From assembly GCA_947259365.1 (NCBI GenBank), contig CAMYMC010000042.1, positions 19,954 to 83,953 on the forward strand: DNA of 64,000 bases, read 5' to 3'. The notes beneath the pieces were generated by a model. The model was given only the letters and a program-made list of their open reading frames with translations, had not been told where the DNA came from and did not search any database. Positions within the stretch are counted from its first letter, which is position 1; each line of letters begins with the position of its first letter. Origin of the DNA: an uncultured Acidimicrobiaceae bacterium. Its GTDB lineage: Bacteria > Actinomycetota > Acidimicrobiia > Spongiisociales > UBA5794. The position numbers and the translations under genes are program-made. Positions 3,800-59,979 of this stretch are shown here, one piece after another.

Positions 3800-5476
3800 T
3801 CACACGATTCCGGTGAGCTGCCAGAAGGGAACGACCGCAGCGATGAGCATCACGATCCCAACGAGGTCGAGGACCGCGCCCTTGCGCAGGATCTCGCGCA
3901 CAGTGAAGAGCTCGGTGCTGTAGGCGAGCATCGTCGGCGGCGTCCCGATGACGAGGGCGAAATCGACCGACGAGGCGATGGCGACGACGCCCACGAGCAG
4001 CACCGGGCTCACCCCGACGAGTCCGGCGAGGGGGATCGCGAGCGGGATGAGCGTGGCCGCCGACCCCGTGTTCGACGCCACCGTCGTCAGACCGAGCGTG
4101 ACGGCCGCGACCGCAGTCACGGCGAGGAGCGTCGGCCAGTCGGCGAGGGCGCCGAGCCGGGTGACGAGCCAGTCCGAGGCGCCCGTCTCCACCATGTGCA
4201 CGCCGAGGGTGAGCCCGCCGCCGAAGGTCAGCAGCGTCGGCCACGAGATCCGCTGGAGGTCTTCCGGCTCGACGAGCCCGACGGCGAACAGCGCCACGGC
4301 GCCGGCAAGGGCGACGATGCCGGGCGAGATGCCGTGCCATGCCTGCGTCAGCCAGCCGGCGAAGACCGCTCCGAAGACGGCGAGGACGGCCCACTGGCGC
4401 CGGTCGAGCCGCTCGAGCCCCGAGCGCTGCTCCACAGCTGCCCGTCTCGCGTCCGCGAAGCGGTCGGCATCGACGCTGACGCTGCTGACCAACCAGAGGT
4501 ACCCGGCCATCACCGGAAGGAAGAACACGACCATCGGCAGCCCGAAAGCGAACCATCGCAGGAAGGTGATCTCGCGCCCGGCGACACTGCCGAGGAAGTC
4601 GATGGCGAGGAGATTGGCGGGGGTGCCGATCGCGCTGCCGACACCGCCGATCGTGGCGGCGTAGGCGATGCCGAGGACGATTGCCTTGCGGTAGCCGAGA
4701 TTCACCAGCGGGGCGGTGACGGCCATTGCGATCGGCAGCAAGACGGCCACGGCCGCGGTGTTCGACATCCACATCGACATGAACGCCGAGATCGCGACCA
4801 TCGCGGCGAACAGCGACGCCGGGCTTCGCCCCGCTCCGGCAACGACGGCCACGGCGGCGAGGCGGTCGAGTTCGACCCGGCGCATCGCCTCGGCCATGAG
4901 GAACCCGGCGAAGAACAGCACGATGATCGGGTCGAAGAACGGGGCGAGTGCGGCCCGGGCGCTCGCGACCTCCGCGAAGGTCAGGACGACCGGGATCAAG
5001 AGACCGGTGACGAACAGCGGCACCGCCTCGGAGACCCACAGGACGATGACCGCGGCGAGGAGGCCGAGCACGACCCCGACGTCGGTGGGCGGTCGCCGCA
5101 CCGCGACGAAGGCGCCCGGACCGTCTTCACCGAGGACGGGGACCGCCTCCCGGGAGCCATCGGCGAGGACGAGTGACACCTCGACCTCGCCCAGGGTCAC
5201 GACCCGTCCCGTCACCGCCACCTCGACGCGGAGGGGATCGTCCACCGGGACGCCTCCCGGAAGCCCGGCGTCGACGGCGACACCGCCGCTGATCCCGTGC
5301 ACCGCCTGCACGGCGTCACTCCCTACCTCGACCGGGCCGGACACGACGACGTCATCGCCGATCGCGATCTCGAAGGAACCGGGCCCCGGGTCCCACGACG
5401 CCGGCGCCGCGGCCCCGGCGAGGATCGCGGCGACGGCCGCAAGGGTCACGAAGAGGGCTCTGCGCGACGGCGACAT
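3800..5476 (-). CDS. DASS/SLC13-family anion permease (sodium:sulfate/dicarboxylate symporter-like) with about 120-aa N-terminal extracytoplasmic domain
   Basis: Many TM helices. Duplicated SNT hairpin motifs (MSNTAAVAVLLPIA; VASNTGSAATLIPLA). Signal-like N-terminus MSPSRRALFVTLAAVAAILAGAAAP. Same strand as cysK and 65 nt upstream of it. Confidence 0.7.
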   Translation of the reverse strand: MSPSRRALFVTLAAVAAILAGAAAPASWDPGPGSFEIAIGDDVVVSGPVEVGSDAVQAVHGISGGVAVDAGLPGGVPVDDPLRVEVAVTGRVVTLGEVEVSLVLADGSREAVPVLGEDGPGAFVAVRRPPTDVGVVLGLLAAVIVLWVSEAVPLFVTGLLIPVVLTFAEVASARAALAPFFDPIIVLFFAGFLMAEAMRRVELDRLAAVAVVAGAGRSPASLFAAMVAISAFMSMWMSNTAAVAVLLPIAMAVTAPLVNLGYRKAIVLGIAYAATIGGVGSAIGTPANLLAIDFLGSVAGREITFLRWFAFGLPMVVFFLPVMAGYLWLVSSVSVDADRFADARRAAVEQRSGLERLDRRQWAVLAVFGAVFAGWLTQAWHGISPGIVALAGAVALFAVGLVEPEDLQRISWPTLLTFGGGLTLGVHMVETGASDWLVTRLGALADWPTLLAVTAVAAVTLGLTTVASNTGSAATLIPLAIPLAGLVGVSPVLLVGVVAIASSVDFALVIGTPPTMLAYSTELFTVREILRKGAVLDLVGIVMLIAAVVPFWQLTGIV

Positions 5477-5591
5477 CCGCCCCGAGTCTCGCACGTCGCC
5501 TCTCCGAGCATCGGGCGGCCGCCGCCGCCGGCGCCGTTCCACGCCGGCCAATTTCCTTGCAGCGGGTCACGGTCACGGTATCTTGTGCCGA

Positions 5592-7331
5592 ATGCGACCA
5601 CACTTGGTAGTCAGACTGCTACTGACCGCGATTGTCATCACGACGGCGACGCCGGCGGTGGCCGGACCGCTCCCCCCGGGCGGGTCCTTCGTCGACGACG
5701 ACGGGAACATCCACGAAGGGAGCATCGAGGCGATCGCCGCCGAGAACATCACCCGGGGCTGCAACCCGCCCGCCAACGACCGGTACTGCCCGTCGGGGAC
5801 GGTGACCCGCGGCGAGATGGCGGCGTTCCTCGTCAGAGCGCTCGGACTGGTCGACGACGGCGGTGGCGACCTCTTCGTCGACGACGACACGTCGATCTTC
5901 GAGGGCGACATCGACCGAATCGGCGCCGCCGGGATCACCCGGGGCTGCAACCCACCGGCCAACACCGACTACTGCCCCGACGACCCGGTCACCCGCGAGC
6001 AGATGGCCGCGTTCTTGGTCCGCGCCTTCGGGTACACCGACCCCGGTGCCGGCGACTGGTTCGTCGACGATGACACGTCGATCTTCGAGAGCGACATCGA
6101 CCGGCTTCGGGTCGCCGGCGTGACACTGGGCTGCAACCCACCGGCCAACGACCGGTTCTGCCCCCGCGACCCGGTACTGCGCGACCAGATGGCGTCGTTC
6201 CTCACCCGGGCACTCGGGCTGACACCGATGGTGCCGCCACCCCGCCCCGTGGCCGTCCTCGAGACCGTCGTCACCGGCCTGTCATCGCCGACGTACCTCA
6301 CCTCGCCGCCGGGCGATCAACGGCTCTTCATCGTCGAGAAACGGGGGACCGTTCGCATCTTCGAGAGCGGCGCGCTTCGGCCCGGGTTCTTCCTCGACGT
6401 CCGAAGCGACACCCTCAACGGCGGTGAGACGGGGCTGCTCTCGCTCGCCTTCCACCCCGAGTACGCGACGAACGGGCGGTTCTACGTGTACCAGAGCGGC
6501 TCCCTCCAACCGGGGGGCAGCGGCCACCATACGAGCTACATCTACGAGTACTCGGTGTCCGCCGACCCGTACGACGCCGACGAATCCTCCCGTCGCGAGA
6601 TCCTCGCCGTCGACCAGCGCGCCCCCAACCACAACGGCGGCCAGATCGAGTTCGGACCCGACGCCATGTTGTGGATCGGCCTCGGCGACGAGGGCGGCCA
6701 GGACGACACCTACGGCAACGGGCAGGACCTCGACACCCTCCACGGGGCCATGCTCCGCATCGACGTCGACGCCGGCTCGCCGTACGCGGTGCCGTCGGAC
6801 AACCCCTTCGTCGGCGCGGCGGGGCGCGACGAGATCTGGGCCTACGGGCTACGCAATCCCTGGCGCTGGGCCTTCTACGGCGGCGATCTGTACATCGCAG
6901 ACGTGGGCCAGAACGCAAGGGAGGAAGTCAACGTCGTGTCGCTGGCCGCCGGTGCCGGGTCGAACTTCGGATGGTGCGACTGGGAGGGCACCCGCAGCCA
7001 CGCCGGTTTCGCCAACTGTCCCGGTTCCGCCTCGGGGGTGACGTTCCCCGTCGCCGAGCTCAGCCACTCGGCCGGGAACTGCTCGATCACGGGCGGACGC
7101 GTGTACGACGGGAGCGCCCTCCCCGACCTCGTCGGTCACTACTTCTACGCGGACCTCTGTCGCGGCCACCTGCTCAGCTTCGAATGGGCCGGGGGCGCGG
7201 TCACGAACGCCAAGGACTGGACCGGAGAGCTCGGCACGATCGGGGGCATCTGGTCATTCGGCTCGGACTCGGACGGCGAGCTCTACATCGTGCGGGGAAG
7301 CGGCACGGTGCTCCGGCTCGCCGCCGGATGA
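5592..7331 (+). CDS. secreted PQQ-dependent sugar (glucose/sorbosone) dehydrogenase beta-propeller with three N-terminal SLH-like repeats
   Basis: Signal peptide. Three 62-aa repeats F.DDD..I.E..I..I...GIT.GCNPPAN..YCP...VTR.QMAAFLVRA matching the SLH consensus. C-terminal SGDH motifs (GLLSLAFHP, NHNGGQIEFGPDAMLWIGLGDEG, GLRNPWRWAF). Confidence 0.75.
   Translation: MRPHLVVRLLLTAIVITTATPAVAGPLPPGGSFVDDDGNIHEGSIEAIAAENITRGCNPPANDRYCPSGTVTRGEMAAFLVRALGLVDDGGGDLFVDDDTSIFEGDIDRIGAAGITRGCNPPANTDYCPDDPVTREQMAAFLVRAFGYTDPGAGDWFVDDDTSIFESDIDRLRVAGVTLGCNPPANDRFCPRDPVLRDQMASFLTRALGLTPMVPPPRPVAVLETVVTGLSSPTYLTSPPGDQRLFIVEKRGTVRIFESGALRPGFFLDVRSDTLNGGETGLLSLAFHPEYATNGRFYVYQSGSLQPGGSGHHTSYIYEYSVSADPYDADESSRREILAVDQRAPNHNGGQIEFGPDAMLWIGLGDEGGQDDTYGNGQDLDTLHGAMLRIDVDAGSPYAVPSDNPFVGAAGRDEIWAYGLRNPWRWAFYGGDLYIADVGQNAREEVNVVSLAAGAGSNFGWCDWEGTRSHAGFANCPGSASGVTFPVAELSHSAGNCSITGGRVYDGSALPDLVGHYFYADLCRGHLLSFEWAGGAVTNAKDWTGELGTIGGIWSFGSDSDGELYIVRGSGTVLRLAAG
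5688..6245 (+). repeat. 3 x 186-bp in-frame tandem repeat encoding the SLH-like modules
   Basis: TTCGTCGACGA(C/T)GAC... recurs at 5688, 5874 and 6060. High nucleotide identity between the copies. Confidence 0.8.
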
Positions 7332-7350: not shown

Positions 7351-8064
7351 TCAGAACTGACGGTATGGCGTGGGTCTCGGCACGCCGGGCTCGCCCCCGG
7401 GGCGGGCCGACAGCAGCCAGACGGCCATCCACTCGACCACCCAGTAGACGCCGTAGCCGATGAGCACCCCGACGGTCGGCGGTCCGACGACGAGGACGCC
7501 GTACCCGGCGATCAGCCCGGCCGGCGCCTCCTCGCCCCAGAGGAGAGCGAACGGAACGGGGGCGACCGCGGCGATGGCGGAGAGGGCGAGGTTGCCGCCC
7601 GTGGCCCCGAGGACGAATAGCGCGATCCCGGTGACGGCGGCGAGGCCCCACAGCACGATCCCGGCCCGGCCCCGAAGCCAGGGCTGCGAGAACCGGGTCC
7701 CCAGCGTGACTGCAGCCCACATCAACCTGCGTCTGACGAGGGGCACGCCGAGATCCTCGAGCGCTTCGAGGAAGATGCGGTCGGCCGACTTCCGCGACAC
7801 CGGCGGAGCGAGACGCGCACCGGAATCCACGAGGTGGTCGTGGAGTAACGCCGCCGCCGTGTGACGGCCGTAGCCACTGGCGAACCATCGCAGCGGCCAC
7901 GGCACCGAGGCGAGATCGGTCCCCGGTAGATCCTCCGGGGTCACGATGTATTCGCCCGAGGCCGCGACGTAGCGGAACGGCCGGACGAGGCGGAACCGGC
8001 GATCGCTCACTTGGGCGAGCACGATTTCGGCCTCGACGTCCGCTTCAACGGCGAAGAACGGCAT
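7351..8064 (-). CDS. hypothetical protein with DUF1353-like N-domain and C-terminal TM helices
   Basis: Motif TDLASVPWPLRW...AALLHDHLV resembles DUF1353. Hydrophobic C-terminal helices. Confidence 0.45.
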   Translation of the reverse strand: MPFFAVEADVEAEIVLAQVSDRRFRLVRPFRYVAASGEYIVTPEDLPGTDLASVPWPLRWFASGYGRHTAAALLHDHLVDSGARLAPPVSRKSADRIFLEALEDLGVPLVRRRLMWAAVTLGTRFSQPWLRGRAGIVLWGLAAVTGIALFVLGATGGNLALSAIAAVAPVPFALLWGEEAPAGLIAGYGVLVVGPPTVGVLIGYGVYWVVEWMAVWLLSARPGGEPGVPRPTPYRQF

Positions 8065-18473: not shown

Positions 18474-19311
18474 TCCCGTGGCGGGCCATCGCAGGCTCGA
18501 GCACACGGCCTCCGCCGCCGAGCCCGGCGTCGAGGGCCGACCTCACTGCAGAGACGGTCTCCTCCGTGCACACGGCGAGGGCACTCGGCCCCGCCCCGCT
18601 CCACGAGGCGTGGAGCGCGCCCGCCTCCAGCGCCGCCGCCATGAGCCGGCCCGTCAGCGGTGAGAGCTCCCGTCGGGGGACCTCGTGGATCTCGTCGTAC
18701 CCGGCTGCGGCGAGTGCTGTCGGGTCCGCCGTCCTGAGGCCCTCGATGAGGAACCCGACCCGCGCCAGGTTGCGGGCGACTGCCGCGAGTTCCACGGTTG
18801 CGGGCAGCGCAGCACGGGCCAGATCGGTGGGCAGCTTGTACTCGGGCACTGCGATGAGGATCCGCAGCGCCGGCGACATCTCGAGGTGACGCCACCTCCC
18901 TGCCGGGCTGGCGAGCACGAGCCCCCCGTAGACGGCGGCGGCGGCGTTGTCGGCATGTCCCTCGAGCCGGTTCACGATGTCGAACAGCTCTCCGTCGCCG
19001 CACGGCTCATCGAGTGCGCGCCGAGACGCCGCCGCGGTCGCCGCGGTCACCGCCGAGGACGACCCGAGGCCCTTGGAGCGGGGGATGGCGTTGTCGATCT
19101 CGATCCGCATCGGGCGACCGACCGCCAAAAGGGCCGCCCGCACGACGAGGTCGTCCTCGCCGGGGAAGGTCGTTTCCCCGTCCTGGCGGATCTCCCAAAG
19201 CCCAGCCGGCTCGGCCCGCACCCGGCAACGCAGGTCGAGAGCGAGGGCGATGCAGTCGAAGCCCGGGCCGAGGTTCCCGGACGACGCCGGGGCGGAGGCG
19301 ACGCCGCTCAT
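18466..19311 (-). CDS. thrB: homoserine kinase
   Basis: GHMP kinase motif PRSKGLGSSSA; 281 aa; ATG at 19311. Confidence 0.8.
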   Translation of the reverse strand: MSGVASAPASSGNLGPGFDCIALALDLRCRVRAEPAGLWEIRQDGETTFPGEDDLVVRAALLAVGRPMRIEIDNAIPRSKGLGSSSAVTAATAAASRRALDEPCGDGELFDIVNRLEGHADNAAAAVYGGLVLASPAGRWRHLEMSPALRILIAVPEYKLPTDLARAALPATVELAAVARNLARVGFLIEGLRTADPTALAAAGYDEIHEVPRRELSPLTGRLMAAALEAGALHASWSGAGPSALAVCTEETVSAVRSALDAGLGGGGRVLEPAMARHGIS

Positions 19312-20219
19312 GGCGGCGGTGTCTCCAGCTCGACGAAGATCTGGGTTGCATCCGGCACCGCTGCGCGCACGCGCGCCTCGATGTCGTCGATGGCCGCCTC
19401 GACCTCGGCACCGCTGAGTAGCGGATCGAGTTCGACGTCCATGTTGACGAGGATCTCCGTCGACGACAGCTGCATCGTGAGGAGGCGCCCGATCGACCGC
19501 ACCCGGGGAACCGCCAGCGTCGCGGTGCGGATGAGGGATCGCTCGCGGCGGGTGGCGGCCTCGCCGACGAGGAGCGCCTTCATCTCCAGGGCCAGGATCC
19601 AGGCAACCGAGGCGAGGACGACCGCGATCGCAATCGAAGCGACGCCGTCCCACTGCGACCACCCCGTGTAGTGGGAGAGGAGCAGGCCGGCGGCGGCGAT
19701 GGCGACCCCCACGGTGGCCGCGATGTCCTCGAAGACGACGACGAGGAGCGCCGGGTCTCGCATGTCGCGCACCGTCGCCCACACGGAGCGGCTTCCCCGC
19801 ACCCGGTTGAACGACGCGAGGGCGGGCCGCAGCGCCAGCACGATCTCGAAGACCGCGGCGGCGGCGAGCACGGCGAGGCTGAAGACCAGCCCTTGCTGCT
19901 CCTCGGGATGGCGGATGCGTTCGAGACCCTCGATGAACGCGACGACCGCCCCACCGACGAAGAGGAAGACGGCGACCATGAAGCTCCAGAAGTAGAGCTC
20001 CTTGCCGCGCCCGAACGGGTGCTGTGTCGTCGGGGCATACCGGGACACGGCTGCCCCCCTGAGGAGGAAGAGCTGGTTACCGGTGTCGGCGACGGAGTGG
20101 AAGCCCTCGGCAAGCATCGCCGAGCTGCCGGAGACGGCGGCCGCGATGAACTTCACCACAGCGATGAGGCCGTTGGCGGTCAGCGCCAGAAGAACGAGGG
20201 TGCGGGACTCGGCGGCCAT
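19308..20219 (-). CDS. cation diffusion facilitator (CDF) family metal efflux transporter
   Basis: 6 TM plus C-terminal cytoplasmic domain. HSVADTGNQ motif. Overlaps the thrB start. Confidence 0.75.
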   Translation of the reverse strand: MAAESRTLVLLALTANGLIAVVKFIAAAVSGSSAMLAEGFHSVADTGNQLFLLRGAAVSRYAPTTQHPFGRGKELYFWSFMVAVFLFVGGAVVAFIEGLERIRHPEEQQGLVFSLAVLAAAAVFEIVLALRPALASFNRVRGSRSVWATVRDMRDPALLVVVFEDIAATVGVAIAAAGLLLSHYTGWSQWDGVASIAIAVVLASVAWILALEMKALLVGEAATRRERSLIRTATLAVPRVRSIGRLLTMQLSSTEILVNMDVELDPLLSGAEVEAAIDDIEARVRAAVPDATQIFVELETPPP

Positions 20220-31100: not shown

Positions 31101-32114
31101 TCAGAGCGAGACGACGGACGGGAACACGGCGACGGCGACGGCGACGGGGATCAGCAACGTCACCACGGCCACCGACCATCCGGTGATGCCGACGGGACGG
31201 GCCAGCGCTCTCAGCGGCTCCGTCACCATCACCGGGCGTCCTGAGCGCACCGACCTGGCAACGAGCACGAGCGCGACCAGAGCCATTGCCCCGAGCGCAG
31301 CGAGCATGACGAGCAACGCCCCGCCCCAGCGGATCGACGCGTTCGTTCCGGCCTGGATGCCGTCGGAGGCGAAGGCAACGTTGGCGACGACGATGAGCCC
31401 GTTCCACAGGGCGTGGGCGCCGATCGCGGTCGACCACGCCGCCGCCAGCCCGACGAGCGGCCTGTCCGGACGGGTGCGCCGCTCGTACCAGGCGAGGCTG
31501 ATGAGCGAGGCCCCGAACAGGTGGAGCCCAGCCCCAGCCGACCTGATGAGCGCGACCGGGAGCCAGCCGACACCGGAGACGGCGAGGCCGGTCGAGGCGT
31601 AGAGGAGGTTCTCCACGGCGGCGAATCCGGCGCCGGCGGCGGCGCCGAAGAGGAAGGCCTCGTGACGGCTGCGGGGACGACGCATCAGCGCTCCGAGCGG
31701 CTTCAGCGTCTCCTCGGCAAGCGGGGCGACGATGGCGGCTTCGACGAAGACGAACAGCGCCCATCCCGTCAGCAGCCTCTCCGGGACGCCGCCAGCCCCG
31801 GCCTCACCGAGCCCGGCCTTGAACGCGTCGGCGAAAGGAGTGACGACGGCCAGCACCGCCGCCGTGAGAACCCCCGCCGCCATGATGACGAGCACCGGCA
31901 CGAGGGTCCCCCCGATGATGGCGGAGGCCGTGAGGCGCCTGCGCTCGCCTCCTGGCCCGGCGACGGCGATCGCCAGGAACAGTGCGGTGACCGGCGCACC
32001 GGCGGCGGCAACGACGAGGGTCCCCCACCCGACGTCGTTCCCACCGGCCAGGCCGGCGATCATCGCTGCCGCGGTGACGACGAATGCGATGGCGAATCTC
32101 TTGAACGGGCTCAT
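31101..32114 (-). CDS. PrsW-family intramembrane metalloprotease
   Basis: 8 TM. EExxK (PLAEETLKP), FGAAAGAGFAAVEN, HALWN motifs of PrsW/CPBP-related proteases. The ATG at 32114 overlaps the stop of the upstream giant ORF. Confidence 0.7.
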   Translation of the reverse strand: MSPFKRFAIAFVVTAAAMIAGLAGGNDVGWGTLVVAAAGAPVTALFLAIAVAGPGGERRRLTASAIIGGTLVPVLVIMAAGVLTAAVLAVVTPFADAFKAGLGEAGAGGVPERLLTGWALFVFVEAAIVAPLAEETLKPLGALMRRPRSRHEAFLFGAAAGAGFAAVENLLYASTGLAVSGVGWLPVALIRSAGAGLHLFGASLISLAWYERRTRPDRPLVGLAAAWSTAIGAHALWNGLIVVANVAFASDGIQAGTNASIRWGGALLVMLAALGAMALVALVLVARSVRSGRPVMVTEPLRALARPVGITGWSVAVVTLLIPVAVAVAVFPSVVSL

Positions 32115-35100
32115 TCCCACTCCTCCAGAATCTCCCCGAGCCGGCTGAGCCTGCCGCCCACCCGGGCCCGGCTCCGCTCGAGCGCAGAGCCGGCGGCGAG
32201 CAGGACGGCGGCACCGACGGCGCCGACGATGAGCCAGGTCCCGCCGGCGAGGCCGCGGCGGGCACCTTCGACGACCGGGATGGCAACCGAGAGAACGATC
32301 GCAGTGGTGACGAGCGCCAGGCCGAGGATCGCCCGCCGCCGCACCGCGGTGGCGGCGCCCCACGCAAGCAGGGCGAACCCTTCGGCGGCGACGAGAACGC
32401 CGTAGCCGAGGCCGGTGAACATACTCCACATCGCCAGCGTCGGCGGGACGGCCATGACGAGCCATTCGAGCGCTCTGAGCAGCTTCGCCCAGCGCCCCCG
32501 GGCTCGGCCTGCACTGCGCTCGAGCTCGATGACGGCGAGGACGACGATGCCGATCGGGATCACCGTGCCGTGGAGGCCGAGCGAATTGACCTCACCGGCG
32601 ATGAGCAGCGCCGCGGCGAGCCACGTGACGAGTGCGCCCTGGATGAGAGTGACCCGCCGTGTGCCGGCGCCAAAGGCGGCAACGGAGCCACCGGCGACGG
32701 CGAGGGAGATGCCGACCTCGAACGACAGGAAGCCGAAGGCGGCGGCCGCGGCGACGAGCGAGACGACTCCGAGGGCGAAACCGGCGCCAGACAGCGCACC
32801 CAGGGAGCGGCCCGACCACGGAACGCCGCCGCCCACGGCGACGAGGCCCATGATCGCGACCCCGATGACGGCCGGGGCAACGAGGACGTCGGCGGTGATG
32901 GCGGCCGCGGTGAGGTAGGCGGCGGACACCCCGACGAGGGCGGCCGCCGTGTTGCGGAGCCCGCGGACGAAGGCGCTGGAAGGAGCGAGGGCCGCGGCGT
33001 AGGCGGCGGCGACCGCCGCCACGGTCGCAGACAGGGCGAACGCCCCCGCGTCCTCGTGACTGTTGTAGCCCAGTGCGATCGCGCCCACTCCGGCGACTCC
33101 GGCGGCGCTGCGGAGGGGAACCAACCAGACACGAGCCCGGACCGAACTCCGGGAGTGCACGGCAAGAGAGGAACCGGCGGCGACGATGGCCGCACCGACC
33201 AGGGTGTTGGCCCGGGCGGCGACGGTGAGATCGAACGCCGCCATCAACGCCACCACGGAGGCTGCAGCGAAGACGATCGAAGTGCTCACAACGGTCGCCT
33301 CCACCAACGCGGTGCCCAGCACGCCGATGGCCAGTGCTTCGACCCCGAGGGCAATCCCGAGCACGAGCTCTCCGTCGATGGCGGGAGCGACAAAGGCGGA
33401 GAACACCGCGTAGCCGATGGCGACCTGGGCCACGGCCAGCGGCTGCCACCGCCACAGTGCTGCGACCTGGGACCGTCCGCCGAGGGACGTGAGCCCACCG
33501 AAGACGGCGACGAGGGCGGCGCCGAGCGCAGCCGAGAGCGCGAACCGGGTGCCGGCGTCCGCGCCGAGCGCGGCGTCGGCAAACGAGAGTGCAGCGGTGG
33601 CGAGGGCGGCGCTCACCCAGGCGAGCCGGGCTGCCCGCCCGATAGTGGCGACGACGGCGGTCACGACCGCCTCGACCCCGAGCACGGCGGCGGCGAGCCG
33701 GAACACAGCGTCGGAATCGAACTCGACGGCGCCTGTCACAACCGCGACCGTCAGGCCGACCTGGCCGACGGCGTGGGCTTGAAGGGCCCAGCGTGCCAGC
33801 CGCCGGGGCACGGCGCGATGACCCGACACCGCCGCGATGACTGCGATGACGCCACTGGCGGCTCCTGCGGCGATGATCCGCGACCCGGGTGCCGGCCAGA
33901 GCCACTCAACTCCCGACCAGCCCGCGGCGACGGCGAACGCGGCCGCAGTCCAGGCCAGCGGGCTCCACAAGGCGGTGTCACGCCGAGCCTCGGCGAGAGA
34001 CGCCGCCGCTGCCGCCGCGACCGCCAGTGTGATCGGCAGCCATCCCCCTCCGGCGGAGACGCCCGCAGCGGCAAAGAGCACGACCGACGCATAGGCGAAC
34101 CCGGCTTCACGGCGCGCCCAGTAGAGGGCCGCGGCGAGAACGGCGCCGGCGAGCAGCACCGTGGAGGCCGTGCCGGCGAACAGGGCGGAGACGATGGCGA
34201 CCCCGGCGGTGCCGAGACCTGCGGCCAGGGTGCCGGCGGCGGGCCGGTGGACGAGATCCCAGCCGTAGCGACCGGGGAGCAGCACGGATCCGAGGGAGAG
34301 GGCGAACGCGAGCGGCATCCACCACACCGGATCCTCGAGGAGGTTCACCCAGCGGCCGGCGACATCACCGTATGCGAACCCGACGAGGACGGACACGGGG
34401 AGCGACACGCCCCCGGTGGCGGTGCCCCATCCGAGAACGGCGAAGCAGCCGGCCGCGACGACGGCGAGCAGCCACACGACCCTGCCGTCGGCGAACCCGT
34501 ACCCGACGATCGCAGGGAGGACGCCCAGCATGACGCCGACGGCGGCCCGGAGCCAGGGTGACGTCAACCCGGGATCGCCGCCGCGACGCCGGTTGAGCAC
34601 GGCAGATGTCGCGACGACGACGGCGGCGATCCCGAACACGAGGAAATGGACGTCCCGGACGGCGAGGCCGACCTCGACCGCACCCAGGGCGGCGGCGACG
34701 GTGGCGAGCGGCCACGAGAGCGAGGTGAGGAACGGCCGCTTCGTGGTCGTTGCCACCACGGCGGTGAGCAGCGCCGCCGAGCCGAACGCCACGCCGGCGG
34801 GGCCGCGGAACGGGGCGGCGACGAGGACGGCACCCAGGGCGGCGGCGTGGGCGGCGACGAGGGCGAGCCTGCACATCACGCCCCGGGACCGTCCGCACAT
34901 CCACAGATTGACCCACGACAGGGTGACGAGTGATGCCGTCAGTCGCCAACCCGGATCGGGGAACACGTCGAATCGGTCGGCGGCGAGGATGACGAGGGGA
35001 TGGGCGGCGGCGACTGCGATGACTGCGGGAGCAAGCCGGATCGCAGGTCCGAGAGCTTCGACGAGAAGCTCCACCAGCGGCGCCCCGCCGCGGGACACAC

Positions 35101-37018
35101 GATGGGCCTCGACGGCGTGGGTGGCCACGATGACGCCCAGTGCGACGAGCACCCCGTCTTCGATCCGGGGATGAACGATGAGCGCCGCGTACACGAACAC
35201 GTGGCCGACGACCCCGGCGGCGAGCACCGCAGTCCTGCCGATGCCGGCGATCGAAACAGCGACGAGGACCGCGCCGACGACGCCGAACGCGACGACATCG
35301 GCCATGGCGGTCCCGTAGGTGCCCCACCCGGATACGGCCCGGCCCGTCATCGCCGTGCCGGCGACGAGTGCGGTCGCCGCGAGCGGTATCCGGACGGGGG
35401 CTGCGACGTCGAGGAGGGCGGCGGTGACGGCCGTCATCAGGATCACGGTGCCGCGGACCCCGAGCGAGGTGACGAATCCGTCGGGCCCGGGGACCACCGC
35501 CATCGCCGCGGCGGCGAAGCCCAGTATCGCTGCCGGGCCGAGCGCATAGGACCGCAGCGGATCGAACCGGCCCGATGCGAACCGGCCAACAGCACATGCG
35601 ATGGAAAGCCCGCCGAGCGTCTGAGGGATCGCCGCGGTCGGGACGAGGCGGATCACTCCGGCACCGATGGCGACGAGCGGAGGGATCCACAGCTCCACGG
35701 CCTGGTGGACCCGCCCGAACCCGACGGGCGCCAGCTCCGCGGTCACCGTGCGAACCGAGCTCGAGATCCCACGGGCGACGGTGAGCCCCGAGACGAACCC
35801 CCACCCGATGACGGCGGTGACGGGGTCGATCGTGGCGAGGCCGAGCCCGATGAACCCGGCGATGCGGGCAACGTGGACGACAAGGACGCTGCGACCTCCT
35901 ACGACCCGGTCCAGCGCCCAGATCCCGATGCCGTACGCCACCAGCCCCAGCCCGAGCCACGATGGATCGAGTCCGATCGTCGGCGTGAGACCGAGGGAGA
36001 TGCCGACCGAGACGTATGAAAGGGTCCGCAGCACGGGGGAGATGTCGCGGCGGAGCCGGACCGGGAGGCCCGCCCAGGCGAAGCCGGTGTCGGACGCGAC
36101 CCACAGCACCGCGGCGGTGAGCAGTGAAGCGACGATGATCGCCGGGGCGAGGTCGGTCAGGCCGGGATCAGCGAGGCCGGCCACCCTCGCGTCGTTGAAG
36201 GCAAAGACGAGGGAGAGGACGAGGACGGCGGGCGCGGCGACCGACGCCATCCGCACGGTGGGAGCGGCCAGCGGAGCGAGCGCAGGGACGGTGCGCATCC
36301 TGGAGGCGAGCGCCATCGAGATCGCGATGGCGCCGAGGACGGTGAACAGTTGCGGCGCGGACATGCCGTGCTCCCAGAAGAGGCCGAGCGCTCCGGCAGC
36401 CGCCCAGATCATCGGCGCAGCGAGGTACGCGTAGATGCGCTCACGCCGCGCCAGTCGGTGATAGACGGTGGCGGTCACCACTCCGACGACGGCGTAGGCG
36501 GGCCACCTGGCGGGTCCGTTGACGTCGGGCGGCCACATCGACCCGTCGCGGAAGAGCGCAGACATCATCACCGGGATCGTGAGCCCCCCGATGAGCCCGA
36601 CTGCGGTCGCGGTAGCGGGGAGGTCGCTCCGTCGCCCCAGGTAGTGGGCGAGTCCGAAGAACAGCGCAGGCGTGGCGACGAAGAACACCGGTCGGAGGTT
36701 CTTGACCGTGACGAGGTCGCCGAAGTAGCCGAAGGCGAAGAACACGAAGATGACGAGGATCGCGAGCAGGACGCCGAGGTAGGTGAGGGCATTAGCGGCG
36801 AAGTCGGCGCTGAACGCCCGCCATGTCCTCTTCATCCGGTCGGCGACGCTCGATCTCGCCTTCTCCCAGCTCCGGCCGGATCCCGGCCCGCCGGCCGGTC
36901 CCCCTGCCGGCCGGCGGACTCGGGCACCCTGCCGTCCGTCGACGGGGTCGGCGATCTCGCCTGGCGCCTTCCGTGGAGATGTCTTCGCCGATGTCTGGTG
37001 CGGGGATGTGTCGTGCAT
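32111..37018 (-). CDS. giant polytopic integral membrane protein (about 1635 aa, >35 predicted TM helices), hypothetical
   Basis: One uninterrupted ORF. Ala/Val/Gly/Leu-rich with regularly spaced hydrophobic helices; only the first about 60 aa are hydrophilic. Start uncertain (ATG 37018 or Met62 at about 36835). Opposite-strand ORFs here are shadows. Confidence 0.6.
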   Translation of the reverse strand: MHDTSPHQTSAKTSPRKAPGEIADPVDGRQGARVRRPAGGPAGGPGSGRSWEKARSSVADRMKRTWRAFSADFAANALTYLGVLLAILVIFVFFAFGYFGDLVTVKNLRPVFFVATPALFFGLAHYLGRRSDLPATATAVGLIGGLTIPVMMSALFRDGSMWPPDVNGPARWPAYAVVGVVTATVYHRLARRERIYAYLAAPMIWAAAGALGLFWEHGMSAPQLFTVLGAIAISMALASRMRTVPALAPLAAPTVRMASVAAPAVLVLSLVFAFNDARVAGLADPGLTDLAPAIIVASLLTAAVLWVASDTGFAWAGLPVRLRRDISPVLRTLSYVSVGISLGLTPTIGLDPSWLGLGLVAYGIGIWALDRVVGGRSVLVVHVARIAGFIGLGLATIDPVTAVIGWGFVSGLTVARGISSSVRTVTAELAPVGFGRVHQAVELWIPPLVAIGAGVIRLVPTAAIPQTLGGLSIACAVGRFASGRFDPLRSYALGPAAILGFAAAAMAVVPGPDGFVTSLGVRGTVILMTAVTAALLDVAAPVRIPLAATALVAGTAMTGRAVSGWGTYGTAMADVVAFGVVGAVLVAVSIAGIGRTAVLAAGVVGHVFVYAALIVHPRIEDGVLVALGVIVATHAVEAHRVSRGGAPLVELLVEALGPAIRLAPAVIAVAAAHPLVILAADRFDVFPDPGWRLTASLVTLSWVNLWMCGRSRGVMCRLALVAAHAAALGAVLVAAPFRGPAGVAFGSAALLTAVVATTTKRPFLTSLSWPLATVAAALGAVEVGLAVRDVHFLVFGIAAVVVATSAVLNRRRGGDPGLTSPWLRAAVGVMLGVLPAIVGYGFADGRVVWLLAVVAAGCFAVLGWGTATGGVSLPVSVLVGFAYGDVAGRWVNLLEDPVWWMPLAFALSLGSVLLPGRYGWDLVHRPAAGTLAAGLGTAGVAIVSALFAGTASTVLLAGAVLAAALYWARREAGFAYASVVLFAAAGVSAGGGWLPITLAVAAAAAASLAEARRDTALWSPLAWTAAAFAVAAGWSGVEWLWPAPGSRIIAAGAASGVIAVIAAVSGHRAVPRRLARWALQAHAVGQVGLTVAVVTGAVEFDSDAVFRLAAAVLGVEAVVTAVVATIGRAARLAWVSAALATAALSFADAALGADAGTRFALSAALGAALVAVFGGLTSLGGRSQVAALWRWQPLAVAQVAIGYAVFSAFVAPAIDGELVLGIALGVEALAIGVLGTALVEATVVSTSIVFAAASVVALMAAFDLTVAARANTLVGAAIVAAGSSLAVHSRSSVRARVWLVPLRSAAGVAGVGAIALGYNSHEDAGAFALSATVAAVAAAYAAALAPSSAFVRGLRNTAAALVGVSAAYLTAAAITADVLVAPAVIGVAIMGLVAVGGGVPWSGRSLGALSGAGFALGVVSLVAAAAAFGFLSFEVGISLAVAGGSVAAFGAGTRRVTLIQGALVTWLAAALLIAGEVNSLGLHGTVIPIGIVVLAVIELERSAGRARGRWAKLLRALEWLVMAVPPTLAMWSMFTGLGYGVLVAAEGFALLAWGAATAVRRRAILGLALVTTAIVLSVAIPVVEGARRGLAGGTWLIVGAVGAAVLLAAGSALERSRARVGGRLSRLGEILEEWE

Positions 37019-46930: not shown

Positions 46931-48916
46931 TCAGTCGCCGACCGACCTCGAGAACCGGACCATCCCGGTGACGAACGCCGCCATGGCGAGGACAAGACCG
47001 GCGGCGAGGACGAGCGACGGCAGCAGCGACGACGGCCGCTCCCGCTCGGCGATGACCTCGACCGGCGGCAGCACGCCGGCCTCGGCGACGGGTGCAACCG
47101 GCGGCACCTCCGGGGTCGCCTCGGCTGGGGCCGGCGGCGGCGACGCACCCGGCTCGACGACGAGGTCCCCGACCATGCCCCCGTCGGCGTGGCCCGGGAT
47201 GTTGCACACGAACCCGAACGCCCCGGTCGCCTCTGGCACGGTGAAGGTGATCGCGCCGCTCCCGCCGGCGTCCACGAAGACGAACACACCCAGGTCGGGG
47301 ATGTCGATGTTGTGTGGAGCCACGCCTGCGTTGCGGAGCCGGAGCGTGACCTCCGCACCGGCGGGGACCGTGATGGACGATGGGGTGAAGGCGAACTCGG
47401 TCGACTCGACGTCGACGACGATCGGTTGGGGGACGGAAGCCGCCGTTGCCGCCGCCACGGCGGGCACAGGCGTCGTCGCCGGTAGGGGAGCGAACGGCGA
47501 GGTGTTGCTCCGGAGCCTGAGCAGCTCACTCGCCGCGTAGAGACCCGTCGCCGTGTCGAAGTATTCGGTCACGACCTCCCAGCGGCCGTCGTCGACGTCG
47601 AAGGCCACCTCCTCGAGGAGGACGGGCGGCAGCGACGTCCTCGGCACCGCGGGGTGCCCGAGATCGTCCGCGGAGGCTGCATCGATCTCGACCGAATCGA
47701 GGATCGACGCCGGGTCGGGCACCGCGCGCATCATCCCGGAGCTGCTCACGACGGCGTCGATGAAGGAGGCGAGCGTCGCCTCGATGGTCGTGGCTTCGCG
47801 GGTCCCGGTGCGCAGCACCCGGTACGCGTGGAGGGCGCCGACGAGGGTCCCGACGTCCCCGGTGGTGAGCACCCCGGCGTCGGCGAAGACGGCGCGGTCC
47901 CGCTGGTACGCCCCGAGAAGCCGCCGTGCCGTGGCGTCGAGCACCGCGTCGCGGTCGCCGGCGCCGGTCACCGCGGCCAGCTCGGCGAGGCCGCGCACGA
48001 CGTGGGCGCGCTCGACGCTCGACGCCGGCACCAAGGCGGCCAGCCGGCCAGCGAGGCCGTCCGCCGAGGCAAGGGCATCGCGGCGCGAGGCGGGATCGTC
48101 AACGAGGGCCGCATACCGCGTCAGCGCCAGGATGCCCTTCGCCAGTTCGTCCACTCGCTCCGGCTCGGTCACCGCGAGCGCCTCGAACAACGACTCGGCT
48201 CCGGAACGGAACCAGGACGCGAAGGCCTCGTCGGCGTAGACGCCCCCGTACGGCGAATCCGGGGTGAGGAGGAGACCGAGTTCGGACAACGCCCGCAACA
48301 TGAGGTACTGGTCGACGAGCCGAGGCGGCGACTCCAGCGGCCGCACTTCGCCGTCGGCCCAGTCCACCGCTCCGTAGAACCCGTCTTCGCGAATCATGTT
48401 CACCATGGCGAAGTCAGCCTGGGCCTTCGCCTCGGTGAGATAGAGCTGGGCCCGGAGCCGGCCCAACGAACCCGCCGCGGAACCGGGATCGCCGTCGTCG
48501 GCGGCGAGGACTCTCGCCGCTTCGACCTCGGCGAGGATGGCCATCGCCTGGGCATGCGGCGTGATCTCGGTCTCGAGCTCGGTCCACGGCTCGGTGCCGC
48601 CCGACCCCGCCGGCTGACCGCCTGCGTACACCGCCTGGAGGAAGACTGCGCCGTCGGGCACGGCGGCAGTGTCCTCACCGGGAGCTGCTGCCTCTGCCAT
48701 CCGCGCCACGAACGACGCCGGCGGTTCGAACGGCACACCGAGGCCCGAGCCGAGGGCCACGTGGTCGATGAGGTAGCGGCCGTACCAGAACCCATTCCAC
48801 AACGCCGTCTCCTCCCGGCCTGATTCGGCCTGGTCGCCAGCGGCGGCCGCCGAGGGAAAGGAGAGAAGGCCGGCCACGACGGCCGCCGTCACTGCCATGC
48901 GCGGTACTCGTTGCAT
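46931..48916 (-). CDS. membrane-anchored protein: signal peptide, about 500-aa alpha-helical domain, C-terminal cupredoxin (type-1 Cu) domain, Pro-rich linker, C-terminal TM
   Basis: Cupredoxin ligands H (VAPHNID), C/H (FVCNIPGH), M (GGMVG). C-terminal helix LLPSLVLAAGLVLAMAAFVTGMV. ATG 48916 (alternative 48898). Confidence 0.65.
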   Translation of the reverse strand: MQRVPRMAVTAAVVAGLLSFPSAAAAGDQAESGREETALWNGFWYGRYLIDHVALGSGLGVPFEPPASFVARMAEAAAPGEDTAAVPDGAVFLQAVYAGGQPAGSGGTEPWTELETEITPHAQAMAILAEVEAARVLAADDGDPGSAAGSLGRLRAQLYLTEAKAQADFAMVNMIREDGFYGAVDWADGEVRPLESPPRLVDQYLMLRALSELGLLLTPDSPYGGVYADEAFASWFRSGAESLFEALAVTEPERVDELAKGILALTRYAALVDDPASRRDALASADGLAGRLAALVPASSVERAHVVRGLAELAAVTGAGDRDAVLDATARRLLGAYQRDRAVFADAGVLTTGDVGTLVGALHAYRVLRTGTREATTIEATLASFIDAVVSSSGMMRAVPDPASILDSVEIDAASADDLGHPAVPRTSLPPVLLEEVAFDVDDGRWEVVTEYFDTATGLYAASELLRLRSNTSPFAPLPATTPVPAVAAATAASVPQPIVVDVESTEFAFTPSSITVPAGAEVTLRLRNAGVAPHNIDIPDLGVFVFVDAGGSGAITFTVPEATGAFGFVCNIPGHADGGMVGDLVVEPGASPPPAPAEATPEVPPVAPVAEAGVLPPVEVIAERERPSSLLPSLVLAAGLVLAMAAFVTGMVRFSRSVGD

Positions 48917-49229
48917 CGGAGACCCGGGTGCTCGTCGGTTTCGTCCGGACACGATGCCGCAGCAACGGGCCGCCGCTGCAGAGCCCTTGGACCCGGATTC
49001 GGAGGCCACCACCCCATCCGATCGGACGAGGCCCGACACTCGGCAGGGTCGTCCAACGGGTCGGCCGTGCCCGTTCGCCCGGACGAGGGCGGGTCTTAGG
49101 TCCCTGACCGACCAAGTTCCGCCTCGGCCGAAAAGACGATGACGCGGAGACGAAGAGTCGGATATCGGACTGAGCCGCGGTTCCGGATGATGACGCCAGG
49201 CATCGAACACGACCACAGGGAGGTTTGAA

Positions 49230-50429
49230 ATGCCATCTCGACGGCTTCCGGGCCATCGCAGAGCCGTCTTCGTGCTGGCCATGGTGGTCGGCCTCATCGC
49301 CGCGCTCGCCGTACCGGCGTTTGCGAGCCACGGCTCGACGACGATCGACGTCGGCATCGCCAACGACGGAAGCACGGGGCGCGACAACTACGACGATTCG
49401 GACATCTCCGTGCTCGCAGGAACACCGATCACGTTCTTCTTCGACAACGGATTCCACAACGTCGTCTGGACCTCGGCGAACCCGGGTGGTCTCGCCGACT
49501 CCCCGGCGGCACCCGGTGGTGACGCGGTCGGGTCCAGCTTCACCGTGACGCCCACGGTCGCAGGAACGTACATCTACTTCTGCTCGATCCATACCAACGC
49601 TGCGACGGCGCTCGCTGCCACGGACTTCGGCGCCGGCCGGCCGGCCGAGATGTACGGTCGCATCGCGGTGACCGCCGACAGCACGCCGCCGGTGTGGGGC
49701 GCAGGATCCGCGACGGCGACCGCCGTTAGCGCCAGCCAGATCGATCTGACGTGGCCGGCGGCAACCGACGACTCCGGGTCCGTCCAGTACGAGGTCTACG
49801 AGGCCCAGGGCGCAACCCAGCCCGCCAAGCCCGGGGCGCCCGTCGCCACGGTCGGCGGCACCAGCACCTCTCGGACCGGCCTCAGCGCCGGCGTCCACTA
49901 CTGGTACTGGATCACAGCCGTCGACGGGACGGGGAACGCAGCAAGTCCCGATCAGCAAGCGGATGCTACGACCAGCTCCGTCGCAGCATTTGCGAACACC
50001 CAGCAGACGATCCAGTTCTCGGTGAATCCGGCGCTGTCGATCAACGTGACCCCGTCGCTGCTCGACCTCGGGACGCTCAACCCGTTGACGAGCCCGACCG
50101 GCACGGGTCAGGCGACCGTCAACGTCGAGTCGAACGACTCCTGGTCGCTGAACCTTCGCTCGATCGGCGCGGACGGCGTGTCCGGAGGTGCCGACGACGC
50201 GTTCTTCACCTCCGGCGGCAACCAGATCCCCGTCTCGCGGGCGACCTGGGACGATCCGGCGAGCGGTGGCGGACCGGCGGCGCTCAGCGACACCGATGCC
50301 GTCGTCGTGACCGGCCAGCCCGCAGGGGCATCGGCGGTCACGATCGACTACTCGATCACGCTCCAGAGCACGGACCCCGCAGGGACGAACTACGAGACCG
50401 TCATCCTCTACACCGTGACCCAGCCCTAG
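49230..50429 (+). CDS. secreted cupredoxin-domain protein with fibronectin type III domain
   Basis: RBS CAGGGAGG. Signal peptide. FHNVVW...YFCSIH...EMYG copper-site residues. FN3 (IDLTWPAATDDSGSVQYEVYEA...YWYWITAVD). Confidence 0.65.
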   Translation: MPSRRLPGHRRAVFVLAMVVGLIAALAVPAFASHGSTTIDVGIANDGSTGRDNYDDSDISVLAGTPITFFFDNGFHNVVWTSANPGGLADSPAAPGGDAVGSSFTVTPTVAGTYIYFCSIHTNAATALAATDFGAGRPAEMYGRIAVTADSTPPVWGAGSATATAVSASQIDLTWPAATDDSGSVQYEVYEAQGATQPAKPGAPVATVGGTSTSRTGLSAGVHYWYWITAVDGTGNAASPDQQADATTSSVAAFANTQQTIQFSVNPALSINVTPSLLDLGTLNPLTSPTGTGQATVNVESNDSWSLNLRSIGADGVSGGADDAFFTSGGNQIPVSRATWDDPASGGGPAALSDTDAVVVTGQPAGASAVTIDYSITLQSTDPAGTNYETVILYTVTQP

Positions 50430-59394: not shown

Positions 59395-59433
59395 GGGGCG
59401 GGATGGTAGGGGGAACCCCCCCTTGTTCAATAC

Positions 59434-59468
59434 ATATCGATTCGATATAGTTATATCGGATCGATATA
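59434..59468. promoter_or_regulatory. two AT-rich palindromes ATATCGATTCGATAT and TATATCGGATCGATATA (candidate PadR operators)
   Basis: Located 14-48 nt upstream of the PadR ATG in an otherwise GC-rich genome. Both share the ATATCGA half-site. Confidence 0.55.
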
Positions 59469-59481
59469 ACATGGACCGATC

Positions 59482-59979
59482 ATGATGGATCTCGCCGTTC
59501 TCGGACTGCTCCACGAGGGGCCGCTCCACGGATACCAGGTACGACGCCGGCTCCACGAGCTCGGGTTCCGCCGGGTGTCCTTCGGCTCGCTCTACCCGGC
59601 GATTCGCCGGCTCGAGGGACGGGGGTGGATCGCGGCGAGGCGCGGCAACGGCCGGCGCAAGGAGTACGGGCTCACCGAGGAGGGTCGCCGCGCCTTCGAG
59701 GAGCTGCTCGATGCCGGGGTCGACGACGGCGACGAGCGGAGATTCCGGATCCGGCTCGCCTTCTTCGCCCATCTCGAGCCCCACCGGCGGATCGCGGTGC
59801 TCGAAGAGCGCCGGGCGGTGCTGACCGACCGGCTCGCAGAGCTGCGGCGGAACCGGCGGCGGAGCACGCCGGCCGACCGCTACACGGTGGCGCTGATGGA
59901 GCGCAGCGTGGCGACGACCGAGAGCGAGATCGCATGGCTCGACGGCCTCGTCGCCGCCGAGCGGGCGGGTCGCACGTGA
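59482..59979 (+). CDS. PadR-family transcriptional regulator
   Basis: [17 protein letters not shown]...[13 protein letters not shown] wHTH. Confidence 0.8.

Follow-up and report, generated by a model that had tools for sequence, protein, structure and literature searches.

A Cysteine-Looped SLH Module Joined to an sGDH/Asd/HHIP-Type Propeller in an Uncultured Acidimicrobiaceae Bacterium

A 64,000-nt stretch of DNA from an uncultured Acidimicrobiaceae bacterium (contig CAMYMC010000042.1 of assembly GCA_947259365.1, positions 19,954–83,953 of the forward strand; hereafter the window, from whose first letter positions are counted) encodes a protein, here termed SLH-GSDH, that joins three S-layer homology (SLH) domains to a six-bladed β-propeller of the sGDH/Asd/HHIP superfamily. 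The repeats of the window protein are true SLH domains, and they represent a previously undescribed yet very widespread SLH variant of the Acidimicrobiia, in which a loop bracketed by two cysteines lines each binding groove. Taken as a whole, the protein is probably best explained as a Sec-exported exoprotein anchored to the wall by its SLH repeats, with the propeller as a likely oxidoreductase at the wall. The wall anchor through three SLH repeats is well supported; the export, the disulfides, the ligand, the catalysis and the cofactor of the window protein are what we infer around it. The gene itself is as follows:

5592..7331, + strand: complete coding sequence, 579 residues plus stop; signal peptide, three SLH domains, linker and GSDH/HHIP-type propeller (translation without internal stop; Pfam)

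The same architecture is found in the orthologs P0121 (86%) and P0122 (79%).

Identity of the Repeats

The initial annotation had described three SLH-like repeats of 62 residues in this reading frame, and translation, Tandem Repeats Finder and a reading of the motifs show both the coordinates and the description to be correct. The array detected at 5747–6203 has a period of 186 nt and a score of 515, and its three 62-residue repeats are mutually 61–70% identical in DNA and 50–65% identical in protein:

5688..5873, + strand: SLH repeat 1, residues 33–94; His41 at the SLH-Trp13 position, NITRG (Gly56 = SLH-Gly29), TRGE (Arg73 = SLH-Arg43)
5874..6059, + strand: SLH repeat 2, residues 95–156; Phe103, GITRG (Gly118), TREQ (Arg135)
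6060..6245, + strand: SLH repeat 3, residues 157–218; Phe165, GVTLG (Gly180), LRDQ (Arg197)

Scored against the Pfam SLH model (PF00395, cut-off 20.8 bits), the whole protein reaches a marginal 21.4 bits, just 0.6 bits over the threshold, the module alone 27.2 bits and repeat 1 alone 16.9 bits, and repeat 3 alone finds no match. Moreover, PF00395 is precomputed for few of the full-length orthologs, most of which carry none, and the only NCBIfam match of the repeat stretch is to the C-terminal end of a model for a NEAT-domain leucine-rich-repeat protein. Scores of this kind could conceivably arise if an unrelated cysteine-containing repeat had matched the Pfam model by chance, but such a coincidence is very improbable, given that 69 of 82 module family members match PF00395 at E ≤ 1e-4 (best 1.8e-16), that the GIIxG and TRAE-type motifs are kept in the repeats, and that a profile built from 13 diverse triple modules finds two independently solved SLH trimers in the PDB, namely Bacillus anthracis Sap (3PYW, E = 5e-9) and Geobacillus SbsB (4AQ1, E = 5e-9), in register and, for SbsB, over all three repeats. 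The same profile matched Paenibacillus alvei SpaA more weakly.

The predicted fold is that of an SLH trimer. An AlphaFold model of residues 26–222, made from a 99-sequence alignment, has two helices per repeat, a mean predicted local distance difference test (pLDDT) score of 96.8 and a predicted template modeling (pTM) score of 0.91. When this model was searched against the PDB with Foldseek, the top 15 matches were exclusively SLH trimers, the next match having an E value of 0.23. The match to 3PYW had a template modeling (TM) score of 0.83 and a root-mean-square deviation of 2.4 Å, and several of the matched structures hold a bound 4,6-pyruvyl-ManNAc ligand. The SLH identity first read from the repeat pattern is thereby upheld by Pfam (at threshold), by the profile-to-PDB matches and by the predicted structure.

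The 3 × 186-bp repeat had also been thought prone to recombination, and here the evidence points the other way. The longest identical runs between the repeat pairs measure 20, 13 and 22 nt, and exactly three repeats occur in 120 of the 136 module-bearing open reading frames (ORFs) in the fetched DNA. With identical runs this short, a repeat identity of 61–70% and a copy number that stays at three throughout the family, the array is not likely to be a recombination hotspot, and this possibility was rejected. The three copies are instead a structural requirement of the SLH trimer.

A Cysteine-Bracketed Loop in the Binding Groove

Earlier structural work on SLH domains identified SLH-Gly29 of the GIIxG motif, whose backbone amide flips and then bonds pyruvate, SLH-Trp13, the stacking partner of the sugar (ManNAc in Sap and SpaA), and SLH-Arg43 of the TRAE-type motif as determinants of ligand binding (Blackler et al., PMC6081394). 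In the window protein, the Arg of the TRAE-type motif occurs in all three repeats (TRGE, TREQ, LRDQ) and is invariant in family alignments, and the second Gly of GIIxG is likewise present in all three and is conserved in ~100% of 361 units. The stacking Trp is absent, the position aligned with Sap Trp164 being taken by His41, Phe103 and Phe165; across the module family, the residue at the Trp13 position is Phe in 71%, His in 25% and Tyr in 3%.

Every repeat also holds the sequence G-C-N-P-P-A-N-x-x-[YF]-C-P, and this loop motif was found nowhere else in a six-frame translation of the window:

5760..5789, + strand: cysteine-bracketed loop 1, CNPPANDRYC, Cys57 to Cys66, directly after SLH-Gly29
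5946..5975, + strand: cysteine-bracketed loop 2, CNPPANTDYC, Cys119 to Cys128
6132..6161, + strand: cysteine-bracketed loop 3, CNPPANDRFC, Cys181 to Cys190

The first loop cysteine immediately follows SLH-Gly29, and the second takes the place of the x in the canonical F-x-P. According to profile alignment, the loop (C-N-P-P-x-N-x-x-[YF]-C) exceeds that of Sap by 4 residues and that of SbsB by 3, and the notion of a large inserted module was rejected, the extra length being only 3–4 residues. The loop lines one side of each SLH binding groove; in SpaA, the groove-lining loop is flexible (PMC6081394).

The two cysteines are kept together. A hidden Markov model (HMM) of the repeat, run over all fetched proteins and loci, found both cysteines in 760 of 761 non-redundant repeat units, only one cysteine in none and neither in one, this HMM having been built from cysteine-containing units so that the search is biased toward such units. 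The sole unit that lacks the cysteines carries a short canonical loop. Three intra-loop disulfides (57/66, 119/128 and 181/190) most likely form in the window protein, and they fit because units with a single cysteine are missing and the mature protein has an even total of 10 cysteines. The Cys-Pro insert noticed at the outset is confirmed: it adds 3–4 residues, and its two cysteines are conserved together.

At 19153–19485 (+ strand) of a contig (L075) from a metagenome-assembled genome (MAG) whose record is labeled "uncultured Acidobacteriota", an SLH repeat of the canonical type was observed, with a short loop (GYNNGNFGP) and no cysteines. Because this contig also bears a cysteine-loop module, the canonical and cysteine-loop types of SLH domain may coexist in one genome.

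Distribution of the Module in Acidimicrobiia

Homologs of the module are numerous. A word-indexed search returned more than 4,300 of them, with source names such as [quoted passage not shown], and an exhaustive search over clusters of 50% identity returned 20,886 representatives at E ≤ 1e-3, of which 1,970 reached E ≤ 1e-30. Among species-representative genomes, the module is encoded at no fewer than 587 confirmed loci. The best 80 of these at least 587 loci all lie in MAGs, mostly labeled Acidimicrobiia, Acidimicrobiaceae or Actinomycetota, with the rest labeled only "uncultured bacterium" or "uncultured Acidobacteriota". Several paralogs occur per genome, and one MAG has at least nine loci.

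The module stands either directly after the signal peptide or within 5–10 residues of the C-terminus, and the genes that encode it are often clustered. Its partner domains among the 82 family members include Peptidase_M15_4, SpoIID, M23, Amidase_2, YkuD and VanW, as well as fn3, β-helix, cadherin-like, subtilase and cupredoxin domains, with GSDH in 7 of the 82; Excalibur and LTD domains were likewise found as partners in the word-indexed search. Such partners are typical of an SLH-anchored wall exoproteome. The module is thus a general anchor of uncultured Acidimicrobiia, represented by about 2,000 clusters at 50% identity. A full-text search of the papers available, aimed at SLH in Acidimicrobiia and at the "GCNPP" loop motif, found nothing relevant. 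In the window itself, a Pfam scan of the 30 larger ORFs (about 220–1635 residues) detected no other SLH protein.

Pyruvyl Transferases Beside SLH-GSDH Genes

Anchoring to a secondary cell-wall polymer had been predicted for the protein, and the genes considered in this connection were those for pyruvyl transferases such as csaB. No pyruvyl transferase (PF04230) was detected among the 30 window ORFs scanned, nor within 10 kb in the nearest ortholog contexts (L001, L002 and L004), and a 2021 survey (Witwinowski et al.) lists no co-occurrence of SLH and CsaB for Acidimicrobium ferrooxidans or Ilumatobacter coccineus. Because the survey lists none for these two species, the SLH/CsaB trait may be lineage-specific, or it may have been missed at Pfam gathering thresholds.

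In related genomes, such a transferase is present. A search of the fetched Acidimicrobiia loci that was seeded with Escherichia coli WcaK gave one weak match (E = 1.4e-4), and the gene so found was confirmed by Pfam and NCBIfam and then reused as a seed. It encodes 875 residues with GT2 domains and a PS_pyruv_trans domain, and it lies in L011 ~100 nt upstream of an SLH-GSDH homolog. The product scores 60.8 bits against PF04230 (cut-off 25.3 bits) and 19–21 bits against WcaK models, and its best pyruvyl-transferase model is that of CsaB (TIGR03609, 79.5 bits; equivalog cut-off 213.1). By these scores it is a member of the pyruvyl-transferase family, its orthology to CsaB being unproven because the best model is CsaB yet the score falls well below the equivalog cut-off. 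Fusions of GT2 and PF04230 lie within about 3–5 kb of SLH-GSDH homologs in four loci, each encoding 850–875 residues:

L011:7167-9794: GT2 and CsaB-like fusion
L014:7212-9809: GT2 and CsaB-like fusion
L085:4107-6650, − strand: GT2 and CsaB-like fusion
L088:2447-4999, − strand: GT2 and CsaB-like fusion

In L011 and L014, the fusion stands directly upstream of SLH-GSDH, and two more genes with a C-terminal SLH triple follow downstream; a partial copy of the fusion was also found ~8 kb from the SLH-GSDH homolog of L076. The neighborhoods of P0161, P0137 and P0166 were read from precomputed annotations. The P0161 locus is on a complete 3.48-Mb Acidimicrobiia chromosome, and the same arrangement surrounds P0137, with a GT2 and PS_pyruv_trans gene and GT1/GT4 genes on one side and, on the other, SLH-GSDH, SLH-Peptidase_M15_4, SLH-SpoIID, a UDP-sugar dehydrogenase and a GT4 gene. 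To this the P0161 locus (L085) adds a PL14 polysaccharide lyase that bears an SLH tag, together with a Bac_transf gene. At the P0166 locus (L086), for which no pyruvyl transferase is recorded, the downstream genes follow the same order next to rml genes and glycosyltransferases. In annotations of Acidimicrobiia MAGs, the transferase has some 60 close homologs. Acidimicrobiia thus do have CsaB-like machinery physically linked to SLH-module genes, because the fusion adjoins SLH-GSDH in several loci, and the predicted anchoring to a wall polymer is consistent with this linkage. The window copy and its nearest orthologs (L001, which is syntenic, L002 and L004) lie outside such a wall-polysaccharide cluster.

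The Propeller and Its Cofactor

The second half of the protein has the following features:

6264..7328, + strand: six-bladed β-propeller of the sGDH/Asd/HHIP superfamily, residues 225–579, with cysteines 462, 476, 497 and 523
6627..6641, + strand: NHNGG motif, His347 aligned by hhalign with the His of YliI NHFGG; invariant in 93 of 93 homologs
6852..6857, + strand: Arg421-Asn422 (GLRNPW), aligned by hhalign with the RN of YliI; invariant in 93 of 93 homologs
7245..7253, + strand: Gly552-Ile553-Trp554, where Asd-type enzymes carry their Arg-x-Arg PQQ-carboxylate clamp; aligned to the RIR of 7CDY and YliI

Membership in the GSDH family is firm: PF07995 matches residues 241–569 with an E value of 6e-40 and 138 bits (cut-off 25 bits), so that both Pfam models, SLH and GSDH, score over their cut-offs. 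The AlphaFold model of the propeller has a pLDDT of 95.0 and a pTM of 0.94. In a sequence search of the PDB with phmmer, the best match was vertebrate Hedgehog-interacting protein (HHIP; E = 6e-32), followed by 3A9G, 7CDY, 3DAS, sGDH and YliI. Foldseek also placed HHIP first (E = 7e-27, 28% identity), and it matched the sugar dehydrogenases dependent on pyrroloquinoline quinone (PQQ) 3A9G, 3DAS, 7CDY and 2G8S with TM scores of 0.76–0.86 normalized to the target, those for 3A9G, 3DAS and 7CDY/7CGZ being 0.83–0.86. To our knowledge, HHIP is a receptor for signaling ligands with no known catalysis.

An hhalign comparison of a 93-sequence family alignment with E. coli YliI (probability 99.7%) served to place the active-site residues. 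His347 is taken as the catalytic base, the counterpart of His144 of sGDH, and Arg421-Asn422 are taken as the equivalents of Arg228-Asn229 of sGDH, the pair flanking the quinone oxygens of PQQ; the roles of these sGDH residues have been described previously (PMC6881810, PMC6881789). In sGDH, Arg408 and a second conserved Arg bind the PQQ carboxylates (PMC6881789), and the RIR of YliI and 7CDY would be the equivalent clamp, its position in 7CDY having been located by a weak alignment from a PDB search with the C-terminal third of the propeller. The window protein has Gly-Ile-Trp at this place, and both Arg positions are variable within the propeller family, as they are in HHIP. PQQ dependence of the propeller is therefore uncertain, because the C-terminal Arg-x-Arg clamp is lacking. 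A protein may still use PQQ without the canonical binding residues, as the fungal enzyme CcSDH does (PMC4133262). The label "PQQ-dependent" is an annotation by family. The initial annotation's "PQQ-dependent sugar dehydrogenase" consequently holds in part: a GSDH-family propeller that keeps the His and the Arg-Asn pair is present, while PQQ dependence is not established, with HHIP as the nearest relative and the clamp lacking.

Full-length SLH-GSDH orthologs, 56–86% identical in the propeller, come from Acidimicrobiia MAGs, and homologs of ~385 residues without SLH (53–55% identity) are common in Gemmatimonadota. Two further members of the propeller clade, P0128 and P0129, carry N-terminal FG-GAP-like repeats of the form GNPGD.PF.GDWN.DG.D. 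These repeats stand where the SLH trimer would be, which suggests that the N-terminal targeting domain is swapped as a module within the clade.

Proposed Role and Alternatives

Considering the evidence together, the SLH repeats would pack into a pseudo-threefold "three-pronged spindle", as in Sap and SpaA, and this trimer probably attaches the protein, without a covalent bond, to a secondary cell-wall polymer linked to peptidoglycan, most likely a pyruvylated one. The disulfide of each loop would make the side of the groove more rigid, and ligand specificity may be adjusted in this way. From the SLH trimer, the Pro-rich linker would lead to the propeller, which most likely acts at the wall as an extracytoplasmic oxidoreductase of sugars or glycans.

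Several results weigh against this explanation. On the side of the anchor, these are the Pfam SLH score barely over its cut-off, with the third repeat unmatched, the loss of the stacking Trp, and the lack of a pyruvyl transferase in the window scan, in the nearest ortholog contexts and, for the two cultured species named, in the 2021 survey. On the side of the propeller, the closest solved relative in both sequence and fold is the non-enzymatic HHIP, the Arg-x-Arg clamp is absent, and the model for non-repeat PQQ dehydrogenases, TIGR03606, gives 73 bits against a cut-off of 434.55.

One alternative is that the propeller is an enzyme or binder of wall glycans, acting where the secondary wall polymer is made or turned over, and so grouped with the peptidoglycan hydrolases that carry SLH tags, rather than as an energy-yielding dehydrogenase of free sugars. 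The loci described above invite such a view, with SLH-GSDH heading the run of SLH-hydrolase and polysaccharide genes beside the GT2 and CsaB-like gene (L085, L088) or beside the rml genes (L086), and flanked by the fusion and by genes with C-terminal SLH triples in L011 and L014. HHIP, moreover, has been solved bound to heparin (7PGM), and the cluster-type genes are basal in the clade of the window protein. That placement comes from a rough, midpoint-rooted neighbor-joining tree only; the window copy and its closest orthologs are not in such a cluster, and the stand-alone homologs common in Gemmatimonadota have no SLH module at all. We consider this alternative unlikely.

Another alternative, which we find doubtful, is a genuine PQQ-dependent aldose dehydrogenase like Asd and sGDH, held at the wall and passing electrons from sugars to surface cupredoxins. 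GSDH family membership, the retained catalytic His and Arg-Asn pair and the CcSDH precedent would all suit such an enzyme; public pipelines name the orthologs "PQQ-dependent sugar dehydrogenase", many SLH-module proteins carry plastocyanin-type cupredoxin domains, and the window encodes two cupredoxin proteins. Yet the missing clamp, the low TIGR03606 score and the proximity to HHIP all tell against it, and no pqq gene was detected among the 30 window ORFs scanned with Pfam. In addition, no cupredoxin or cytochrome gene neighbors SLH-GSDH in the five gene contexts examined, and the two window cupredoxin proteins are encoded ~40 kb away, lack an SLH module and include one, of 818 residues, that is apparently membrane-anchored. 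The proposal that the protein is an electron donor to surface cupredoxins thus found no support in gene linkage.

The two cupredoxin ORF calls (46934–49387, − strand, and 49230–50426, + strand) overlap on opposite strands. In the 818-residue ORF, the cupredoxin domain lies near the C-terminus and precedes a hydrophobic stretch that we interpret as a membrane anchor. The N-terminus of the 399-residue ORF resembles a signal peptide, and its plastocyanin-like match is weak (21.8 bits).

A bolder extension of the wall-anchored oxidoreductase that we favor is that uncultured Acidimicrobiia have a branch of the SLH/CsaB system of their own, in which SLH domains with a disulfide-stapled long loop and without the Trp recognize a distinct pyruvylated polymer made by the GT2-GT2-CsaB-like fusion, and in which the HHIP-like propeller is a conserved oxidoreductase or glycan binder of that locus, associated with the wall polymer rather than oxidizing free sugars. 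This scheme is speculative and, in our estimate, improbable as a whole; if true, it would give bacterial relatives of Hedgehog-interacting protein a new cell-wall role.

Gene Context and Other Features of the Window

The remaining features of the gene are a secretion signal and a linker:

5592..5663, + strand: predicted Sec signal peptide, residues 1–24, MRPHLVVRLLLTAIVITTATPAVA followed by G, read from the sequence by eye
6222..6263, + strand: Pro-rich linker, TPMVPPPRPVAVLE, recognized by its residues and by the low pLDDT at the end of the SLH model

The signal peptide has a basic n-region, a hydrophobic core and an A-x-A site, and the junction of A-x-A with GPLPPGG also occurs in P0122 and P0125, so that Sec export of the protein is predicted from its N-terminus. 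The first 8 residues of the linker overlap the tail of the 62-residue repeat period.

The window has a G+C content of ~70% along its whole length, and a longer open frame, starting at 4716 and overlapping a divergent transporter gene (3800–5551, − strand), was rejected as an artifact because stop codons are scarce in high-GC DNA. SLH-GSDH sits between this CitMHS-type transporter gene and a DUF1353 gene. The latter (7354–8064, − strand) is convergent with SLH-GSDH and lies only ~20 nt downstream of it, an arrangement that is kept in the syntenic MAG contig L001 (11705–12418, − strand) and not in L002. Exact-sequence look-ups of the SLH-GSDH protein and of this DUF1353 protein matched no record. 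Just upstream of the SLH-GSDH start codon, the short divergent region holds a terminator-like GC-rich hairpin with a T-containing tail (5527–5548, + strand), which falls within the annotated 5′ end of the opposite-strand transporter ORF. A promoter-like site was looked for and none was found.

Elsewhere in the window, a 772-residue VanW protein without SLH (57730–60045, − strand) has a weak PG_binding_4 match and is putatively wall-associated. A 1635-residue ORF (32114–37018, − strand), in which Ala, Val, Leu and Gly abound and which has no Pfam match, resembles a very large polytopic membrane protein and coincides with a strong AT-skew anomaly of 0.35–0.38.

Significance

Uncultured Acidimicrobiia are abundant in soils, sediments and waters. 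Surface display by SLH domains and CsaB has been worked out in Firmicutes and diderm Terrabacteria, and the 2021 survey found only "a few examples within Actinobacteria". The data from uncultured Acidimicrobiia point in the opposite direction, toward a large SLH-anchored exoproteome with CsaB-like transferases beside some of its genes. The signature G-C-N-P-P-x-N-x-x-[YF]-C-P ... [TL]-R-x-[QE]-M-A offers a means of predicting surface proteins in this class, and the putatively stapled loop provides a testable case of how a change in the groove affects ligand recognition by SLH domains. A note of caution also follows for the HHIP-like clade, where annotations as "PQQ-dependent sugar dehydrogenase" rest on family membership alone. 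As for the single window gene, the results are mostly confirmatory and would not surprise a specialist, public pipelines being already right at the family level.

Comparison with Known Systems

The closest structural parallels to the anchor are the SLH trimers of Sap (3PYW, 6BT4), SpaA (6CWC, 7SV3 and related entries) and SbsB (4AQ1). Like them, the window protein has three repeats of ~60 residues with the same predicted fold (TM scores of 0.78–0.83), the second Gly of a GIIxG-type motif and the Arg of a TRAE-type motif in every repeat, and a module that serves as a terminal anchor on many exoproteins, with a CsaB-like transferase in related genomes. Unlike them, it shares only 16–20% identity, comes from an actinobacterial class rather than from Firmicutes, has a cysteine-bracketed loop after SLH-Gly29 that is 3–4 residues longer than in Sap and SbsB, and replaces Trp13 with His or Phe. 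The transferase also departs from known SLH/CsaB systems, in that the Acidimicrobiia version is fused to GT2 and scores below the CsaB equivalog cut-off.

The propeller can be set beside YliI/Asd (2G8S), the Pyrobaculum aerophilum enzyme (3A9G), the Streptomyces coelicolor protein (3DAS), 7CDY and the sGDH of Acinetobacter calcoaceticus (1C9U). All share the six-bladed fold, the His of NH.GG, the R-N pair, a [DE]-E-[IV]-N segment after a D-V-G-Q turn and an extracytoplasmic location. In contrast, identity is only 17–26%, Gly-Ile-Trp stands in place of Arg-x-Arg, the window propeller has four extra cysteines, and an SLH anchor is attached to it, whereas the Asd/sGDH enzymes are free in the periplasm. 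With vertebrate HHIP (2WFT, 3HO5, 7PGM), the propeller shares a C-terminal blade of the S-F-G-E-D..G-E-L-Y type and the lack of the Arg-x-Arg clamp. It differs from HHIP in having Arg-Asn (GLRNPW) where HHIP has His-Asp (GLHDPG), and in ending with the propeller, whereas HHIP continues into C-terminal EGF domains.

Finally, in overall design the protein can be likened, by description (PMC4133262, PMC6881789), to the fungal AA12 pyranose dehydrogenase CcPDH (AA8-AA12-CBM1), another secreted propeller of the sGDH fold that is joined to a polysaccharide-binding module. CcPDH differs in carrying a cytochrome domain, which the window protein does not have, and in the target of its binding module, the CBM1 of the fungal enzyme being directed to cellulose and the SLH module of the window protein to the cell's own wall.

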